UHGV virus genome: UHGV-0211472
Strand: one strand, 5' to 3'
From: a virus
DNA: 64,000 bases
Shown here: positions 16,681 to 41,720 of the stretch, piece by piece
Position numbering within the stretch: the first letter of the stretch is position 1
How the letters are laid out: each line of letters starts with the position of its first letter
Translations under genes and position numbers: made by a program
Notes under the pieces: generated by a model
Told to the model about the DNA's origin: nothing
The model's database searches: none
Seen by the model: the letters and a program-made list of their open reading frames with translations, nothing else

Positions 16681-18525
16681 TTAGTGCGTATGCATCCAAT
16701 TTAATCCAATCTGACAATCAGAAGCCAGAGGACATTCCATGTTCAAGTACTCACCAGCCTTCTTAACACAAAGCTCAGTGTGCTCTTTGAGTTTCTGTAC
16801 ATCATTACGATTTACTGAGAATTGGCCCTCATCGTGCATATCAATTACCTTAGCACAACGAACCCCATCCTTCTCAATCCACTTGTTAAGGAACATCATA
16901 GCATATTTCATAACAACAGCACCAGCACATTGCAGGAGTGTGTTAAGGGCTTTATGAACCATAACTTTACCAGTGGCATCTCTTCTCATTGTAATCTTAC
17001 GACCATCAACTCCAATCAAGTATCCTTGAGCAGCTTTCTCTGTCATACGATCAATGAGGATTGCAATACACGGGTTCTCTGCTAAGAAACGCGCTCGCAT
17101 CACTGAACCTTCGTCAGCCCCACCACCTACAATTGAACCAAGCTTAGCATCACCAGCACCGTAGTTGAATGCATAGATAAATGTCTTAGCGTTGTCACGA
17201 GTAGGAAGACCAGCAAGTTTCTGGTTGTGGGAGTGGATATCACCTTCAAGGAGAATATCACGATACATAACAGCAGAAGCTAAACCGCGTTCTGCCAGAG
17301 CTTTCTTAGCTGGGTTATTCTCTTCGATTGCTTCAGCAAGCATATCTCTACACTCTTTGATGAGGTAGTGAGCGAGCATACGAAGTTCAAGTCCAGAACC
17401 ATCATACCCTAAGAATATTTCTTTACCAGCGGGTATGTAATATTTGTAAGCACCTACAGGTTTGTCTTTCTTCCCCGGCTTACCTTTCTCGTAAATTACG
17501 TTAGTACCTTTTCGTATATAACAATCATCAGGAACAACGTTAGTAATAACGAAAGGACGAGAGTGATCACTGTCTGAGTTATAGTCAGACTCAAACAAAC
17601 TGCGACACTCATGACCAAACAAACCACGGGAGGGAATATTAACCACGATACGATGTTTGAATCGAAAAGTCGGCGTAGCACAGCTGTTAGCTTCTGCCGA
17701 AAGTTTACCATCTTTGCGTTCCTTTGCTATGAGTCCGCTGATAAGGCCTAGCCTGTGAGCCGCTACAACACGTCTCTTAAGCAAACTTCCGACACTCCCT
17801 AGCTCACCCCCTAATCCTTCTTCAAGGGTCTCCTCGAGGTTTGTAGGAGCTGTAGGCCACTTGTTTGAGGTAGCTAGTGCTATCTTAATCTCGTCAAAAG
17901 TGATAGGCCTACGTCGGTTAGGATTTAAACCTAAACCAAATACATAAGCCTTCATGTAGTTCTTAGTCTTAAACCTAAAATGCTTCTCTAAGAACTTCCT
18001 GATATCAGCGTCAACCATCTCGGCTGTCTGCTTCTGTTTAGCATTACCTCGCATCCAAGCTGAATACCATGCTTGGTATGTTCCATACTTTCTCATATCT
18101 TTCTTAATTTCAAAAGTATTCCAAGGCTTCTTAGATACGTTAAACTCTGGAGGAAGAAAGCCCTCATCCATAAGAGCTTCTTTAACTCGTGCATCCTTCG
18201 ATGGGTCAAAGTCTACGTATTCGACACAGGTAAAAGCTCCACCAATGTCTTCTCTCTTCAGCCCAACCCTATCGCAATAAGCTTGAGGCCACTTCTGCAA
18301 AGCCCCAGACTTCTTAAATGGCTTCATATAAGTAGAGCCATCTAATCTCATCTTAGGTAAGAGAGGAATTAGTTCTTTATCAATATTAACAATAATCTCT
18401 TTAAGGAGGTGAACATACCACCGAGCATTTCTTCGGTTGAAACTCACTCCGTGCTTTGCTTGCTTAGAGATTATATCAGCGACAGTCATCTCTGTCAAAA
18501 ATGGGAGAGCGTCCGGGTTGCTCAC
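16681..18525 (-). CDS. DNA polymerase family A, polymerase domain only
   Basis: motif A DGSGLELR, motif B RDNAKTFIYAFNYGAGDAKLG, motif C IDMHDEG; no 3'-5' exonuclease motifs in this ORF. Confidence 0.85.
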   Translation of the reverse strand: MSNPDALPFLTEMTVADIISKQAKHGVSFNRRNARWYVHLLKEIIVNIDKELIPLLPKMRLDGSTYMKPFKKSGALQKWPQAYCDRVGLKREDIGGAFTCVEYVDFDPSKDARVKEALMDEGFLPPEFNVSKKPWNTFEIKKDMRKYGTYQAWYSAWMRGNAKQKQTAEMVDADIRKFLEKHFRFKTKNYMKAYVFGLGLNPNRRRPITFDEIKIALATSNKWPTAPTNLEETLEEGLGGELGSVGSLLKRRVVAAHRLGLISGLIAKERKDGKLSAEANSCATPTFRFKHRIVVNIPSRGLFGHECRSLFESDYNSDSDHSRPFVITNVVPDDCYIRKGTNVIYEKGKPGKKDKPVGAYKYYIPAGKEIFLGYDGSGLELRMLAHYLIKECRDMLAEAIEENNPAKKALAERGLASAVMYRDILLEGDIHSHNQKLAGLPTRDNAKTFIYAFNYGAGDAKLGSIVGGGADEGSVMRARFLAENPCIAILIDRMTEKAAQGYLIGVDGRKITMRRDATGKVMVHKALNTLLQCAGAVVMKYAMMFLNKWIEKDGVRCAKVIDMHDEGQFSVNRNDVQKLKEHTELCVKKAGEYLNMECPLASDCQIGLNWMHTH

Positions 18526-18541
18526 TTTATACTCCTTTAAA

Positions 18542-18946
18542 TTATTGGTAAAGTAAATCTGTAAATGCTTGATTGTCAGCTATTGCATCTAGGTCATTAG
18601 GAGATACTCGGATAGTGTTACCTTCAACTCTCCACGGAGTTGGCGTAGGTGAAGACCTAACTTCAAGAGGCTGCTCTCTGACTAGATGGGCCATGACCTC
18701 CTGATCGGCAACTTCCTCTCTTTCTCGAATATCTCTCTGGATGTAGGCCAGCTTCATGCCCCAAGCTTCTTCAAACTCTTGAGGGTGTTTATCACTGATC
18801 ACTACATATCGACGATTGACGGAAAACCTTCTTGCTTTCAAAATAAGATTGCAAAGATCTTCTACTTCATCTTCTTCTAGGTTGTTATAAATATCATCCC
18901 ACTTCACTACACAGAAGCGGTTTTGGTGTCTAGTTGGTAGTGGCAT
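18542..18946 (-). CDS. hypothetical protein (134 aa)
   Basis: ORF in replication/metabolism operon. Confidence 0.45.
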   Translation of the reverse strand: MPLPTRHQNRFCVVKWDDIYNNLEEDEVEDLCNLILKARRFSVNRRYVVISDKHPQEFEEAWGMKLAYIQRDIREREEVADQEVMAHLVREQPLEVRSSPTPTPWRVEGNTIRVSPNDLDAIADNQAFTDLLYQ

Positions 18947-21167: not shown

Positions 21168-21824
21168 TTACTTATTCCAAGTAGTTGATAAGGCTTTCCA
21201 AGAGATTGGATAGAGCTTCTTCATCTCTTCATCAATAGTTTGTGCAAATAGTCGGACCTCATACTGAGCGTGTTCTGACAGACGTTGACGGCATACTTCT
21301 GACCAGCCATATAAGGAGCCAGTCCAGATCCACTCCGTCGTCATTCCCTGAGGTAGGACAAACCGAGCTTGCTCAGGGGCAATCAGGTCAATCAGTTTTT
21401 CATAATTACTAACAGCTACTTCATATGCCTCGTTAATCAGTGTGAGAGCTTCTGCACGGGCTTCGTCTTGTAATAGGATACCAGAACCTTTGTGAAGGTC
21501 TTCAGGTCGGGAGAAGATCTCTTGTGGAATGAATACATCAACGTCTCCATCTTTATATCGACGGCTCATCTCATTCCAGCTAAACCCCGTCTGATGTTTT
21601 CCTAGCTGGCGAGCAATAGCAATAGGTGCTACACATCGGAAGGTTACTTGTGGGTGCCTAAAAGGAGTCACATGTTTTTCACGAGCGAGGAAGTTGATGA
21701 GACGTTCATCACGTTCATTTAAATCACCTTCACGGGTTACTCCAAAGGATACACGAGCTGCATTTACTACAGTTTTATCCGAGCCTAAAAACTCTACCAG
21801 TTCTGCTTTAAGCTGATCATTCAT
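21168..21824 (-). CDS. ThyX-like (flavin-dependent thymidylate synthase family) protein with divergent active-site motif
   Basis: segment FRCVAPIAIARQLGKHQTGFSWNEMSRRY resembles the ThyX RHR...S..RY signature but reads KHQ with the Ser position shifted. Confidence 0.6.
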   Translation of the reverse strand: MNDQLKAELVEFLGSDKTVVNAARVSFGVTREGDLNERDERLINFLAREKHVTPFRHPQVTFRCVAPIAIARQLGKHQTGFSWNEMSRRYKDGDVDVFIPQEIFSRPEDLHKGSGILLQDEARAEALTLINEAYEVAVSNYEKLIDLIAPEQARFVLPQGMTTEWIWTGSLYGWSEVCRQRLSEHAQYEVRLFAQTIDEEMKKLYPISWKALSTTWNK

Positions 21825-24297: not shown

Positions 24298-25599
24298 TCA
24301 CACTTCAAAAGAGAAACCGCGACCCGATTCATCGGCAAACCGAACTGTACGGGTTTGAGGTTCTAATACTTCAGGGTTGTTGGCAACAAATCTATCAGCG
24401 AGGCTATCTCCTAAATCCTCTATCACATCTTCATCAGTCCACACAGTCCTAACCGGTACATCAAAGTCACCAGCAACAAAACCCTGACCGGAGAATTGAC
24501 GTGCGCTGACAGTAAAGTCATTTGACCGACCACGAGAAGAACCAGTCATCCACCGCTCTGTAGAACCGTTCGTAATACCAAGAGCCTCTTCAAAAGATGT
24601 TCTAGGATCGGGGCTTTCACTTCGTGACTCTTGTGCTCGACGCATTTCAGGGACTGCAAACACCCCTTCCATTGTGTTGTGATGATTAGTCTCATCTTCC
24701 CGACCAAGTAGATCTCCACTTGTATTGGTTGTTAAGTTTGTCAACCCTTCAGACCAATACGCACTAATCTGACTAGATCCATGAACACTTGACATTAACT
24801 GGATTTCTTCATAAGGGATTCCAAAGAATCGACTCATGTCACGATTAACACAATACTGAGCACTTGTTGTATCCTCAACAAGAGCAACCTGACCCCATTC
24901 ATTGATCAGATGACTGACCGGTTGAGGTGTGGGAAGATATCGAGATTGTGCCATATATTGGTATGCAACAGATGGAGCGGAGAATCTTAATACCTGTGAA
25001 TTAGGCCACTTCTTGTGAACATACTTGATTTCACGACCAGAAACAACTACTGGACAGGGGGAGGTCATAGCCAAATATCCATGAGGGGTCATGAATAGAT
25101 TGTCAAGAGTAATCGCACCACGGCACATCATAGGAAAGCTGTCCAACACCTCTTCAATAGAAGTAGGATAGTTAAACATGAATTGGATACGAACCCCACT
25201 CCACTGGAACTCAATAATATCGGTAAATGTTAACAGAGATCCTTCAGCGTAGGCTTCATTCGTAGCTTCAGCAAGAAGGGAAGAGTACTCAATATCTTGA
25301 GACTCGAGCCACTCTTTCACGTTACTTTCAACCTCTCGTCCGAGATCTTGCCACTGGTCATGGTGGATAAAGGTGTTTCGAGTTCTTGGGGCCTGTCCTC
25401 TGACAATAAAGATATCAATGTCATGAGGTGCTCTGTTATTAAGAACAGCATCACGAACAGCCCCACCAGTGATGATGGGACAAATACAGTCTGGAATCAA
25501 GTTGTTGTTAATCAGCTGTTCAATGAAGTGACGACCAACAGCGATATCAGGTTGTTGAGCAACCTTATCTGCAATTCGGTTAATCGGGATAACAATCAT
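24298..25599 (-). CDS. Pol-beta-superfamily nucleotidyltransferase with CCA-adding-enzyme-like head
   Basis: ITGGAVRDAVLNNRAPHDIDIFIV matches the GGxVRD...DxD head-domain motif of class II tRNA nucleotidyltransferases/poly(A) polymerases; preferred start ATG 25599 (one nt after the exonuclease stop); long Ser/Gly/Glu-rich C-terminal region. Confidence 0.6.
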   Translation of the reverse strand: MIVIPINRIADKVAQQPDIAVGRHFIEQLINNNLIPDCICPIITGGAVRDAVLNNRAPHDIDIFIVRGQAPRTRNTFIHHDQWQDLGREVESNVKEWLESQDIEYSSLLAEATNEAYAEGSLLTFTDIIEFQWSGVRIQFMFNYPTSIEEVLDSFPMMCRGAITLDNLFMTPHGYLAMTSPCPVVVSGREIKYVHKKWPNSQVLRFSAPSVAYQYMAQSRYLPTPQPVSHLINEWGQVALVEDTTSAQYCVNRDMSRFFGIPYEEIQLMSSVHGSSQISAYWSEGLTNLTTNTSGDLLGREDETNHHNTMEGVFAVPEMRRAQESRSESPDPRTSFEEALGITNGSTERWMTGSSRGRSNDFTVSARQFSGQGFVAGDFDVPVRTVWTDEDVIEDLGDSLADRFVANNPEVLEPQTRTVRFADESGRGFSFEV

Positions 25600-25600
25600 T

Positions 25601-26158
25601 TTACATTTTCCAATATAATGAAGGTGGGTCGTAAGGGTCAAATCCTGTGAGTTCACACAAGTATTTATAAACCTTAACAGTTAAATTAACGTCCTGTTCA
25701 CAATAAGTAAACATATCCTCAGTGAAAGCATCCCATGCTTCCTCTTGCTCACCGTAATCACCTTTAAGTTCCCCTAAGAACTCACCCCATTGCTTCAAGC
25801 CATGACCTCTTGGGCCATGTCTAGGGTCGCCTTTCGGGTACTCAGGACTGTCACCAATACGGTCAGGTTTAAGATATCGACTAAGACATAAAGTGTCAAA
25901 GACGTTAAAACGATAGTTAATCAGATTGGGATACATCTTCTTCAGAGCACAAAGGTCGAAGTCAATAATATTGTGACCCACGAGCACATCTGCTTCTGTA
26001 AGTTTATGAATCCCATCTTCAATTTGGTGAGGCCGATAGCCCCACCTTTCACCAGTTTCAACATCGAAAACATAAATACACCATACTTTGGTTATATCAT
26101 CGTATAGTGCATTACTCTCAATATCGAATGCAAACACTTTCTTCTTTTTCTTTACCAC
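25601..26158 (-). CDS. DnaQ-like 3'-5' exonuclease (stand-alone proofreading domain of family A polymerase type)
   Basis: Exo I FDIES, Exo II HNIIDFD, Exo III YCEQD motifs; GTG start overlapping the upstream stop. Confidence 0.7.
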
Positions 26159-26712
26159 GGTGAAGCTCCATCTGCTTGGCTGACGAGAGAAGCTGCATCC
26201 TCTCCGTTAGTTAAAACGAATGGATTATCTTCATCAACTTCAAAGTCTTCCCTTTCTACAAGTCTACCGGTTTCACTGATATACTTAGTATAACAGACAC
26301 CTGTCTGACCGTAGTTACGTTCTTTCAGTAATCGAATGACTGAGAGGTTCTTAGCTAAGCCGTCAGCTTGCTTGTCACGCTCAAAGCCAATGATACACTG
26401 ACACCAACGCATAAGAGAACGAGAGCCAGTGAACTGTACTTCACGTACCTGTCCACCTTCTTCATGAGGAGCACCACCTGCCGGAGCATTAAGGTGAGAT
26501 AGCACGAAAGCGGTAAAGTCTAACTCTTTACACATACCAGCAAGCTCGGAAGCGATCTTACTGATTTCAGTGTTAATCTCTGAAGGTGTTAAATGAGATA
26601 CCAGAGCGGTAATGTTATCAAGGATGATAAATTTACACTGGTTTTCAACTACCCAGAAACGAATACACTGTTTAATGTCTTCCCATTCGTTTTGCAATAA
26701 TTCAATGAAGGA
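26152..26712 (-). CDS. primase-helicase, exon 2 (helicase C-terminal part)
   Basis: [33 protein letters not shown]... continues the T7-gp4-type helicase (H2 onward) in frame once the intron is removed; 5' boundary predicted. Confidence 0.65.
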
Positions 26713-26947
26713 CGCAACTCCTTCACCCGTAGCATTATATCTACTGCCCGTGGTTTCCCACGGGATTGGACTATATCATCACTCCTATTAAGGAGGCTAG
26801 GCGCTTCCACTAGCATTAGCTTCTAGTGTACTCCTTTCGGATAGTCTCTGCACTTTCTAGGATGTATCCTAGCTTAGCTCAGGATTGGCATATCTTTCGA
26901 CTTAGCTTTCCCTGAATTCACCTAGTTTTACTTCGGCCATTGTGTTA
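26713..26947 (-). ncRNA. group I self-splicing intron (ORF-less) within primase-helicase gene
   Basis: no ORF; begins with in-frame UAA; P1 pairing of exon end ACUUCGGU with intron GGCCGAAGU (terminal U-G wobble); R-like GCAGAGACUA and S-like GAUAUAGUCC; P9-like hairpin CCCGUGG-GAAA-CCACGGG; terminal G; boundaries uncertain by a few nt. Confidence 0.65.
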
Positions 26948-28195
26948 ACCGAAGTTGTCATACAAGAAGAATTTGTCTGCATAACGAAGTGCTTCATTAC
27001 GCAAATCCTCTTCATCATATTCAACATCAGGTCGGTGGAAAGGAATTGATGCTGACTTACCAGCGATGTTCTTAACAGACATGCCTACCTTCTCTTCCAA
27101 GAAGAAGCCACCCCCATTAAAACCATGTTCTAAGCACAGATGAGCAACAAGTTCGTGAGCAATTAGTGTTTTACCACTACCTACACCACCACCGATGGCT
27201 ACCACCTCTCCCCATCGAATACCGAAGGTCATCTCATTCAGAGTCTTCCACGGGTAGGGGATACCCCACTCCGCTTTCTTCAGAGCATCATCAAGACAAT
27301 CAAAGATTGTTACAGCTCCGGCAGGAGATTCCCGCTTTGCTGAATACTTGAGAATGTTGAATAACTCTTGACCGCGACCAGACAGAAGCATGTCATTCGC
27401 ATCCTTAATCTCTTTCTCCACACCGTTGTATGGGAAAGTTCCTTTAGGAATACGAGCAAACTTAACATGAGGGAATAAAGAACGACCTTTTGTTAAAGCT
27501 ATCTCACCTGCATCATCGTTGTCCATGCAGAGCACAACCTCCTCAAAACCATTTACGAAGTCTCGGTTACGAGACAACACAGAAGAGATTGAACCTGCAC
27601 CGAACGGTAAAGAAACACAGGCTGGTTTAATGTTTGTTGCATTTGTAAAAGCTGTAAGGACATGGAAACCAGACATACAAGATAGCGGGTCTTCAAAAAT
27701 GAACAGCTTCTTGTTGTACACGTCTCCCCGTTGAGCTTGTGCCATACCAAATAAATCTGCTTCTTTCACACTGCCGACGTAATAAAACTTCTTACTATCT
27801 AGCAGTTTAACCTCATATCCGACAATGTTTCCATCACGTTCACGAGGAAAGAAGTAACTGTCTGGTGTCTGACCATCAGTTTGACTGAGACCAATACGAC
27901 ACTCAAAACGCTCTGATACAGCCTTGGGAATTAAACGGCGAGTAAGTTCACCCTGAGGGAGTTCTAAGCAATCATCTAAGACTTCTCTCAACTCTTCAGG
28001 GGATAACTCTTTCTTCTCATTTGGAGTAGGTGTAGTGCCCTTTTCGAACACTTCGTAATTCCCACAACGGTTACAACTTCCCCACTCCTCACCGGTCTCT
28101 TCGTTACGGAAGAGAATCATGTGGTTGTGGGTTTTATCACGACCATGAGAGATACATTCCTTACAACCTGTGTCTCCCAAAATGATCTTTGACAT
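26948..28195 (-). CDS. primase-helicase, exon 1 (zinc-binding primase, TOPRIM, helicase Walker A)
   Basis: N-terminal Cys4 zinc ribbon (CKECISHG...CNRCGNYE), TOPRIM-like acidic motifs, Walker A GGGVGSGKT, ends ...KFFLYDNFG like T7 gp4 ...FHLYDSFA. Confidence 0.8.
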
Positions 28196-28221: not shown

Positions 28222-28425
28222 TTAGTAGAACGAACGGATTTCATCCCACACTTGTTCCTGTTCTTTCCTATAAAAAGAAAGTTGGGTCTTGAACATCTCC
28301 ACTGATGATTCAAAGTTTTTAGATTGTGCAGCTTCAACGAAACGTTCATGTCTGTTGATTTTGCACCGTAACATTAAATACTTGGCTTCAAGTCTCCGAA
28401 GAGCTTGTCTTTTCTCAAGATTCAC
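28222..28425 (-). CDS. hypothetical protein (67 aa)
   Basis: ORF; overlapping alternative 28161..28349 considered less likely. Confidence 0.35.
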   Translation of the reverse strand: MNLEKRQALRRLEAKYLMLRCKINRHERFVEAAQSKNFESSVEMFKTQLSFYRKEQEQVWDEIRSFY

Positions 28426-28840
28426 TTTTCAGATACTCTGACCAGTCACCAGATTCAACCAGAACATCTTGTTCTTCGTCAATATGGTAGATATAGCATT
28501 CAACAATTTCACCTGAATCCATCTTGACGTTGACCAGAGACCTGTTGTAGAAGCTATCTTCAGGGCTATGTTTGTTGTAACCTTCCAGTCGGTCATATGG
28601 ACCTTCCAGACCTGCTTTGTCAGTAGCAAACACTTCTACACGAACAGGCTTATTGTTATTGCTGTGTGCGAGAGAGATGCTCGGGAAGTAGGAACCACCG
28701 TAACGGAACAGATCGAAGTTATCTTCAGTCCAACCTTCACCGATTGACTTAGCACCAGCTCGGTCATTAACTAAATAGTTAGCTTGACCACTTCTCAAAG
28801 ACCCATAACATGCGACTAAAACTTTATTTTGTTCTGACAT
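28415..28840 (-). CDS. gamma-glutamyl cyclotransferase-like (AIG2/GGCT family) protein
   Basis: N-terminal VLVACYGSLRSGQ (YGSL motif) and downstream ...GPYDRLEGY... typical of AIG2/GGCT fold. Confidence 0.65.
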   Translation of the reverse strand: MSEQNKVLVACYGSLRSGQANYLVNDRAGAKSIGEGWTEDNFDLFRYGGSYFPSISLAHSNNNKPVRVEVFATDKAGLEGPYDRLEGYNKHSPEDSFYNRSLVNVKMDSGEIVECYIYHIDEEQDVLVESGDWSEYLKSES

Positions 28841-41600: not shown

Positions 41601-41720
41601 AATACCTCAAGAACTCTTAGCGAGGGTGACAGGACTCGAACCTGCATACTCCATTTACTTCTTTAACGACCACTTAGAAGGCGGGGAAGATACACCCTCA
41701 CTAAGAGCTCTCGTTAATCC

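Follow-up and report, generated by a model that had tools for sequence, protein, structure and literature searches.

A class II-derived nucleotidyltransferase in the replication module of Kuravirus phages and its possible kinship with Gad2

Closest described systems and the Kuravirus gene

Gad2, a protein of 400 amino acids with an AlphaFold-predicted nucleotidyltransferase (NTase) domain, is encoded in SPbeta-like Bacillus phages by the second of their Gabija anti-defence genes. Its knockout makes phage SPbetaL7 sensitive to Gabija, and a homologue supplied in trans abolishes Gabija defence (bioRxiv 10.1101/2023.05.01.538930). Smaller NTases, 167-254 amino acids long and gathered in phrog_1614, occur in T7/phiKMV-like podophages. 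One of these, ORF16 of the phiKMV-like phage LKD16, sits between helicase and ligase, and gp22 of the Pseudomonas putida phage Emajogi adjoins the primase/helicase, is annotated as Gad2 family in its relatives, and is toxic when over-expressed. The class II tRNA nucleotidyltransferases, which add CCA, CC or A, are a further point of comparison, together with bacterial poly(A) polymerase I. Here we examine how a gene at positions 24298-25599 (minus strand) of UHGV virus genome UHGV-0211472 compares with these systems. The gene encodes an NTase of 433 amino acids, and the 64,000-nucleotide stretch of DNA that was analysed is hereafter called the window.

The window is a Kuravirus sequence, with about 92% nucleotide identity to phiEco32 and to roughly 100 further Kuravirus genomes. 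Its NTase gene is known and annotated: it is a core gene, found among the replication genes of every phiEco32-like (Kuravirus) coliphage. Specifically, the protein matches phrog_12715 ('nucleotidyltransferase') from end to end (E 1.5e-225), is 73-84% identical to Kuravirus proteins that bear the same annotation (phiEco32 gp73), and is already present in nr as an identical entry from a 68-kb metagenomic contig. Orthology with gp73 and its counterparts is full-length within Kuravirus, in the same gene order, and the only differences are allelic ones located in a disordered linker. The clade to which the window belongs has a 433-residue form that lacks the 15-20-residue insert of the 453-456-residue Kuravirus forms. 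In this sense the observation of an NTase is an ordinary one, and its interpretation as a CCA-adding-type enzyme in the first-pass annotation repeats an existing database label.

The family to which this protein belongs is small. A phmmer search of 1.84 billion representative proteins recovered only 31 relatives, 118-482 amino acids in length, and the N-terminal domain is common to all of them. Members are between about 274 and 482 amino acids long, and the shorter entries resemble fragments. The shared N-terminal domain extends for about 215 residues, downstream of which the members differ completely; the NTases of Nieuwekanaalvirus and Suseptimavirus, for instance, are 30-34% identical to the window NTase over this domain only. 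Genes for primase/helicase, exonuclease, NTase and dCTP deaminase follow one another in this order throughout Kuravirus, Nieuwekanaalvirus and Suseptimavirus, and also in two environmental phage contigs whose NTases are only 29-35% identical.

We propose that this protein is a class II-derived, minimal phage NTase of Gad2-like type that serves a counter-defence or replication-linked task, a reading to which we assign a probability of about 0.45 from sequence comparisons.

Similarity to Gad2 and to class II enzymes

As judged from profile comparisons, the best reading of the NTase is as a member of a Gad2-like phage group (PF26128, PHROG 1614 and relatives), in which phrog_12715 would form the Gordonclarkvirinae branch. 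A precomputed match to PF26128:Gad2, marked as weak (best E 1e-5 to 1e-3), is present on the NTase and on most of its close homologues. No Gad2 model is included in the Pfam and NCBIfam copies used locally, and Gad2 itself matches nothing in them. We built an eight-sequence profile from Gad2 and seven homologues listed in the supplementary tables of the original report (bioRxiv 10.1101/2023.05.01.538930). Comparison of the NTase family with this profile in hhalign yields a probability of 89% (E 2e-6) over 121 columns, corresponding to amino acids 42-199. The alignment spans motif A, the strand with the invariant glutamine (IQFMF versus LQMIH), an F-P/D-x-x-C-x-G-A stretch, and then an R..Y..K helix. 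Described in other terms, SPbetaL7 Gad2 and PF26128 proteins resemble the NTase in an hIAGGA...NDhDhaF head that is followed by an hQhh strand, an F[D/P]xxxC segment and an R..(K)Y helix, and all are phage-borne.

Searches that start from the family as a whole lead to the same group. When its profile was run against 5.8 billion proteins, it brought in further proteins of the family's own kind, and the only matches beyond the family were two PF26128 proteins of 223-226 amino acids. With one of them, P0088, the family aligns over 159 columns at a probability of 95.5% (E 1.4e-8). A tblastn search of phage genomes with P0088 returned just two weak Aeromonas phage matches, with no context information. 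The profile phrog_1614 is matched by the window NTase (E 5e-7), by Gad2 proteins and by both of the out-of-family PF26128 proteins, and its podophage members are also the best viral structure matches to the NTase. LKD16 ORF16 and Emajogi gp22 resemble the NTase further in being minimal class II-like heads among replication genes, such that an NTase occupies a replication-module context in two unrelated podophage lineages. The small podophage proteins differ in lacking the helical extension, linker and C-terminal module of the Kuravirus enzyme, and the similarity covers only about 100 residues.

Several observations weigh against a Gad2-like assignment. The link is remote and the PF26128 match no more than weak; in hhalign the class II score (60.6) exceeds that for Gad2 (51.7), although the class II alignment is much shorter. 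The alignment ends near Gad2 residue 161-197, and nothing similar to the C-terminal 200 or so residues of Gad2 is found in the NTase. The PHROGs of SPbeta-type Gad2 proteins (18122, 27100, 16176 and 4400) are unmatched by the window protein, which also keeps the class II 'VRD' of motif A that SPbeta-type Gad2 has lost. A variable anti-defence locus harbours Gad2; the window NTase, in contrast, is a core gene in the replication module. Anti-defence genes are usually accessory and variable, and a core, syntenic NTase fits a housekeeping role in replication or nucleotide metabolism better. Moreover, a publication of February 2026 still counted the mechanism of Gad2 among the unknowns (PMC12904381), and our literature search found no paper that links Gabija with Kuravirus-type phages and none on the function of gp73.

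The relationship to class II enzymes is of a different kind. The head motif noted in the first-pass annotation, ITGGAVRDAVLNNRAPHDIDIF, is indeed present at amino acids 43-64 (25408-25473, minus strand), where it supplies a GG turn and the catalytic aspartates D60 and D62. Across 24-26 representatives of the family, the invariant residues are G45, G46, R49, D50, D60, D62, F64, I128, Q139, P156, Y193 and K197, and the active-site signature GGxhRD...DhDhF is invariant with them. As far as can be judged from the alignment, this pattern indicates a conserved active site. The six residues that define class II motif A (GGxVRD and then DxD: G45, G46, R49, D50, D60 and D62) are all among them. In structural comparisons the head fold is likewise of this type, since the top 41 Foldseek matches of the predicted NTase model among PDB entries are all class II enzymes.

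Beyond motif A, the resemblance fades. The Pfam model PF01743 (PolyA_pol head) scores 19.0 bits on the NTase, below its cut-off of 23 bits and over profile positions 3-66 of 126, and gives 18.8 bits, 13.5 bits and no match on homologues. Against solved CCA-adding enzymes the family profile matches at motif A only (6ibp, E 0.0027). Against a class II profile built from nine E. coli and phage enzymes it reaches a probability of 94%, with just 59 columns confidently aligned. Identity between class II enzymes and the window NTase is only 12-16%. Comparisons in hhalign with single E. coli Cca or PcnB sequences found motif A only (5-12% probability) and were dropped as too insensitive, and a phmmer search of PDB sequences with the single NTase sequence gave no match. 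When profiles and structures are compared, class II enzymes provide the closest solved folds, and Gad2-type phage NTases are the nearest relatives once similarity across the entire domain is considered.

What CCA synthesis requires lies elsewhere in a class II enzyme. The RRD of motif B reads the ribose 2'-OH, and the EDxxR of motif D is a protein template that selects CTP and ATP. Neither is conserved in the family alignment. At the place of motif B the NTase has LDSFPMMCRGA rather than RRDFTINA, with P156 as its only invariant residue, and the residues aligned with motif D (SPCPVVV) are variable and are followed closely by a conserved family motif, [RTK][DE]xxYxx[KR]K. These correspondences were drawn from a low-confidence alignment together with the order of secondary-structure elements. 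In addition to RRD and EDxxR, class II enzymes possess alpha-helical neck, body and tail domains with which they grip the tRNA, a set that the predicted NTase structure does not show, body and tail being absent.

Other phages do encode recognizable tRNA NTases, and these are distinct. Canonical phage CCA enzymes account for 423 phage records, with 35-56% identity to E. coli Cca, and the 30 rows sampled come mostly from large genomes of 84-375 kb; no Kuravirus appears among the records listed or in the organism tally. Short phage tRNA NTases of 243-246 amino acids fall in the tRNA-NTase PHROGs 24229 and 2244, neither of which is matched by the window NTase. Charge was considered as a further discriminator and set aside: the catalytic domain has an isoelectric point (pI) of 4.5-5.2, but the heads of canonical CCA enzymes are also acidic. 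NCBIfam and PADLOC scans found no match at E values up to 10 (the NCBIfam copy being the one without a Gad2 model), and models of known defence-system proteins, considered for a place among CD-NTases, cGAS-like enzymes and other defence-system NTases, did not match.

On this evidence from sequence, an assignment of the NTase as a CCA-adding enzyme is not supported, because the determinants of CCA synthesis are missing. What stands of the earlier class II reading is descent from a class II head; the CCA-adding or tRNA-repair role attached to it does not follow, given that motifs B and D and the body and tail are lacking. The name 'class II CCA-adding enzyme domain' given in databases claims more than the sequence can bear out.

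Gene architecture, a tRNA-like gene and neighbouring features

The complete coding sequence of this gp73 orthologue and phrog_12715 member, 433 codons and a stop, runs from an ATG at 25599 to 24298 on the minus strand, as first described. We take this ATG as the start because every homologue begins there with M-I-x-I-P. A 452-residue version from a GTG at 25656, taken from a mechanical list of open reading frames (ORFs), was dropped, as homologues all begin at the ATG with MI(V/x)IP. The junction with the gene upstream reads TAAAATG (25597-25603, minus strand): a single base separates the exonuclease TAA (25601-25603) from the NTase ATG (25597-25599), in agreement with the tight coupling that had been reported. 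Such an arrangement suggests co-transcription and possibly coupled translation. The same adjacency is found in phiEco32, EP335, ECBP2 and environmental relatives with about 30% identity, and from this context the NTase is probably co-expressed with replication proteins.

The upstream gene (25601-26158) encodes a stand-alone DNA polymerase A 3'-5' exonuclease (Pfam DNA_pol_A_exo1, E 7e-9; PHROG annotation 'DNA polymerase exonuclease subunit'). The DNA polymerase of this phage is split, with the 185-residue exonuclease subunit at 25601-26158 (minus strand) and the polymerase proper at about 16681-18946 (minus strand), some 7 kb away. Its phiEco32 counterpart, gp53, is annotated as being without exonuclease domains, and the split was already known for that phage.

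The NTase itself is organized in four parts. The conserved catalytic domain (amino acids 1-222; 24934-25599, minus strand) begins with a family-specific N-terminal strand and two helices (amino acids 1-31) and continues into the class II-type head. A helical extension follows (amino acids 223-289; 24733-24933, minus strand), with helices at 228-231, 247-259, 263-270 and 274-277 modelled at moderate to high confidence. It is loosely conserved outside Kuravirus, and alignment quality falls after about residue 215. The folded N-terminal region as a whole amounts to about 220-285 residues. Next comes a predicted disordered linker (amino acids 290-392; 24424-24732, minus strand) that is rich in Thr, Ser, Gly, Arg and Glu and has predicted local distance difference test (pLDDT) values of 31-49. 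This linker varies in length and sequence and is partly deleted in some Kuravirus homologues; one of them, P0042, lacks about 60 residues and keeps both flanks. The final part, amino acids 393-433 (24301-24423, minus strand), ends in ...GRGFSFEV and is modelled at pLDDT 57-78 with helices at 393-407 and 409-412 and strands at 418-422 and 428-432 that form a beta-hairpin. All five aligned Kuravirus sequences keep this module, including the one with the linker deletion, and it might act as a tethered element for protein interaction. The unusual composition noted for the C-terminal region is real: Ser, Gly and Glu make up 29% of amino acids 290-433 versus 19% of amino acids 1-289.

The first-pass annotation regarded the genome as having no recognizable tRNA genes and reported no T-loop motifs in the window. 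Neither statement holds. A canonical T-loop, GGTTCGAGTCC, is located at 41632-41642 (minus strand) inside a 79-nucleotide gene at 41621-41699 (minus strand) that resembles tRNA-Arg(UCU) and whose stems are supported by covariation. ARAGORN detects no tRNA in the window, and Rfam reports none at its gathering score; the gene scores 28.1 bits with the Rfam tRNA model versus a gathering score of 29. It occupies the place that is syntenic with the tRNA-Arg(UCU) gene of phiEco32, which encodes CCA, and most Kuravirus-like relatives are reported to carry one tRNA-Arg (PMC9965538).

We collected 13 distinct homologues of this gene, from phi92-like, FelixO1-like and jumbo phages. All have an acceptor stem of 7 bp, a T arm and an anticodon hairpin whose loop, CUUCUAA (anticodon UCU), never varies; none has a D arm. 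Instead, a 3-bp helix surrounds the anticodon hairpin and is followed by the invariant UGGAGUAU. Over the 13 homologues 98.5% of cells are paired, versus 38-52% in slid controls, and 11 pairs exhibit compensatory changes. From these sequence data the gene may be a structurally rearranged tRNA-Arg, and it looks more unusual than the NTase finding itself. At its 3' end, the window copy reads G-CUA and the Bas94 copy CUA, with no encoded CCA, while eight of the 13 homologues do encode CCA. This CUA end is the sole feature through which a CCA-type activity might be linked to the phage of the window.

Several other features of the window stand out, the first three of them as differences from phiEco32. 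The primase/helicase gene is split by a group I intron (Rfam RF00028, 86.3 bits, E 1.4e-20) at 26747-26957 (minus strand) into ORFs at 26945-28195 and 26152-26697; the insertion, at about 26692-26948, adds some 255 bases relative to phiEco32, where the gene is a single uninterrupted 1791 bp. An HNH homing-endonuclease ORF at 28824-29372 (minus strand; Pfam NUMOD4, E 2e-10, and HNH_3, E 5e-8) is also inserted relative to phiEco32, and the alignment of the two genomes is interrupted between window positions 28791 and 29415. The ThyX gene (21198-21770; Pfam Thy1) has about 76% nucleotide identity to phiEco32 versus 91-96% for its neighbours, which suggests a mosaic replacement. A gamma-glutamyl cyclotransferase gene lies at 28415-28840 (Pfam GGACT). 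The region 29958-36000 (minus strand) matches phiEco32 gp80-86 and encodes a RimK-like ligase, a GlmS-like amidotransferase, an amidoligase and a COOH-NH2 ligase. The pathway formed by these genes offers one more candidate explanation for the resistance to defences that the group is reported to show.

Proposed function, rival explanations and implications

How might a Gad2-like NTase act in these phages? We envisage an enzyme that would use an NTP or dNTP to add a nucleotide to a 3'-OH, with no protein template to dictate C-C-A. By analogy with Gad2, the product that it makes or the target that it modifies might shield replicating phage DNA from a host defence of the Gabija or DNA-end-sensing type. 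The NTase would be made together with replication proteins, and could be tethered to them through its C-terminal module. The enzyme is probably catalytically active, as judged from its conserved residues: invariance of R49/D50, D60/D62 and the GG turn in a family with a mean column identity of only 25-40% is what would be expected if the active site were under selection. The opposite view, in which the NTase fold is kept merely as a catalytically dead structural or binding scaffold, draws on the family-wide variability (E/D/Q/N/S) of the E130 column, which aligns with the usual third-carboxylate strand. The invariance just described makes such a scaffold highly improbable.

Activity on RNA would offer other roles. 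A true CCA-adding enzyme could complete or repair the 3' ends of host or phage tRNAs, for example those damaged by defence nucleases, or of the phage tRNA-like RNA, whose G-CUA end would need 3' maturation to become CCA. In keeping with this role are the class II-type motif A and nearest solved folds, an older GenBank annotation that suggests CCA, and the existence of head-and-neck-only tRNA NTases of 243-246 amino acids in other phages. However, the head model stays below its threshold over half the domain, and RRD, EDxxR, body and tail are missing. Canonical phage CCA enzymes form a separate group in large, tRNA-rich phages, and the short phage enzymes have PHROGs of their own. In addition, no relative lacks the NTase, even where CCA is encoded in the tRNA-Arg gene, and the E. 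coli host has its own Cca. We consequently regard tRNA end addition as improbable. A comparably long shot is template-independent tailing of RNA by a poly(A)- or poly(N)-polymerase-like enzyme, which might target transcripts of the host, or early ones of the phage, for degradation, or change how stable they are, as transcription passes to phage control. Poly(A) polymerase I has retained RRD together with an RNA-binding body and C-terminus of basic character (pI 9.7), whereas the NTase is acidic throughout (pI 4.7) and has none of these parts, and its gene context gives no pointer to RNA metabolism.

A replication or DNA-modification enzyme that acts on DNA or dNTPs, through 3'-end addition or the making of a modified nucleotide, is unlikely, though somewhat less so. 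The position of the gene between an exonuclease subunit and dCTP deaminase, beside the primase/helicase, is strictly kept even at about 30% identity; the junction with the exonuclease gene is a single base; and the RRD that would read a ribose 2'-OH is absent. Yet the genomes of the lineage are wholly syntenic, such that a kept position is weak evidence of a functional link. Because the phage encodes ThyX, its dCTP deaminase is explained by ordinary dTTP supply, and to our knowledge no class II-type NTase makes a DNA base modification. A role of this kind in restriction resistance has been raised before: Gordonclarkvirinae are remarkably resistant to restriction-modification without a known modification pathway, and the NTase and dCTP deaminase were suggested as a possible DNA-modification pair in the BASEL study, in which Fun/Z was the only tested defence to which Kuravirus showed sensitivity (PMC11990801). 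The simplest form of that proposal, deoxyuracil-containing DNA, is unlikely given that ThyX accompanies dCTP deaminase in the same module.

A bolder version of the Gad2-like proposal can be formulated, which we consider speculative and rather doubtful. The Gordonclarkvirinae NTase, the small phiKMV-type NTases and Gad2 might constitute one class of replisome-associated, template-independent enzymes that extend or cap the 3' ends of phage DNA during replication, or that make a nucleotide product, so that DNA-end-sensing immunity such as Gabija cannot engage. The Kuravirus enzyme would then be tethered to the split polymerase or to the helicase via its linker and C-terminal module. If true, this arrangement would supply a mechanism for Gad2, and it might contribute to the unusual defence resistance of the phage group.

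Regardless of the precise function, replacing the CCA label with relatedness to Gad2-type proteins, one of which is a proven Gabija inhibitor, is a useful correction. Kuraviruses grow readily, the BASEL collection now offers them on E. coli K-12, and their resistance to host defences is reported to be striking. The comparison raises the questions of whether countering Gabija-type systems is general among Gad2-like NTases, what their substrate is, and why such enzymes are retained in the replication module of two unrelated podophage lineages. Interest in this NTase would rise sharply if a replication-linked mechanism directed at DNA ends were to prove true.

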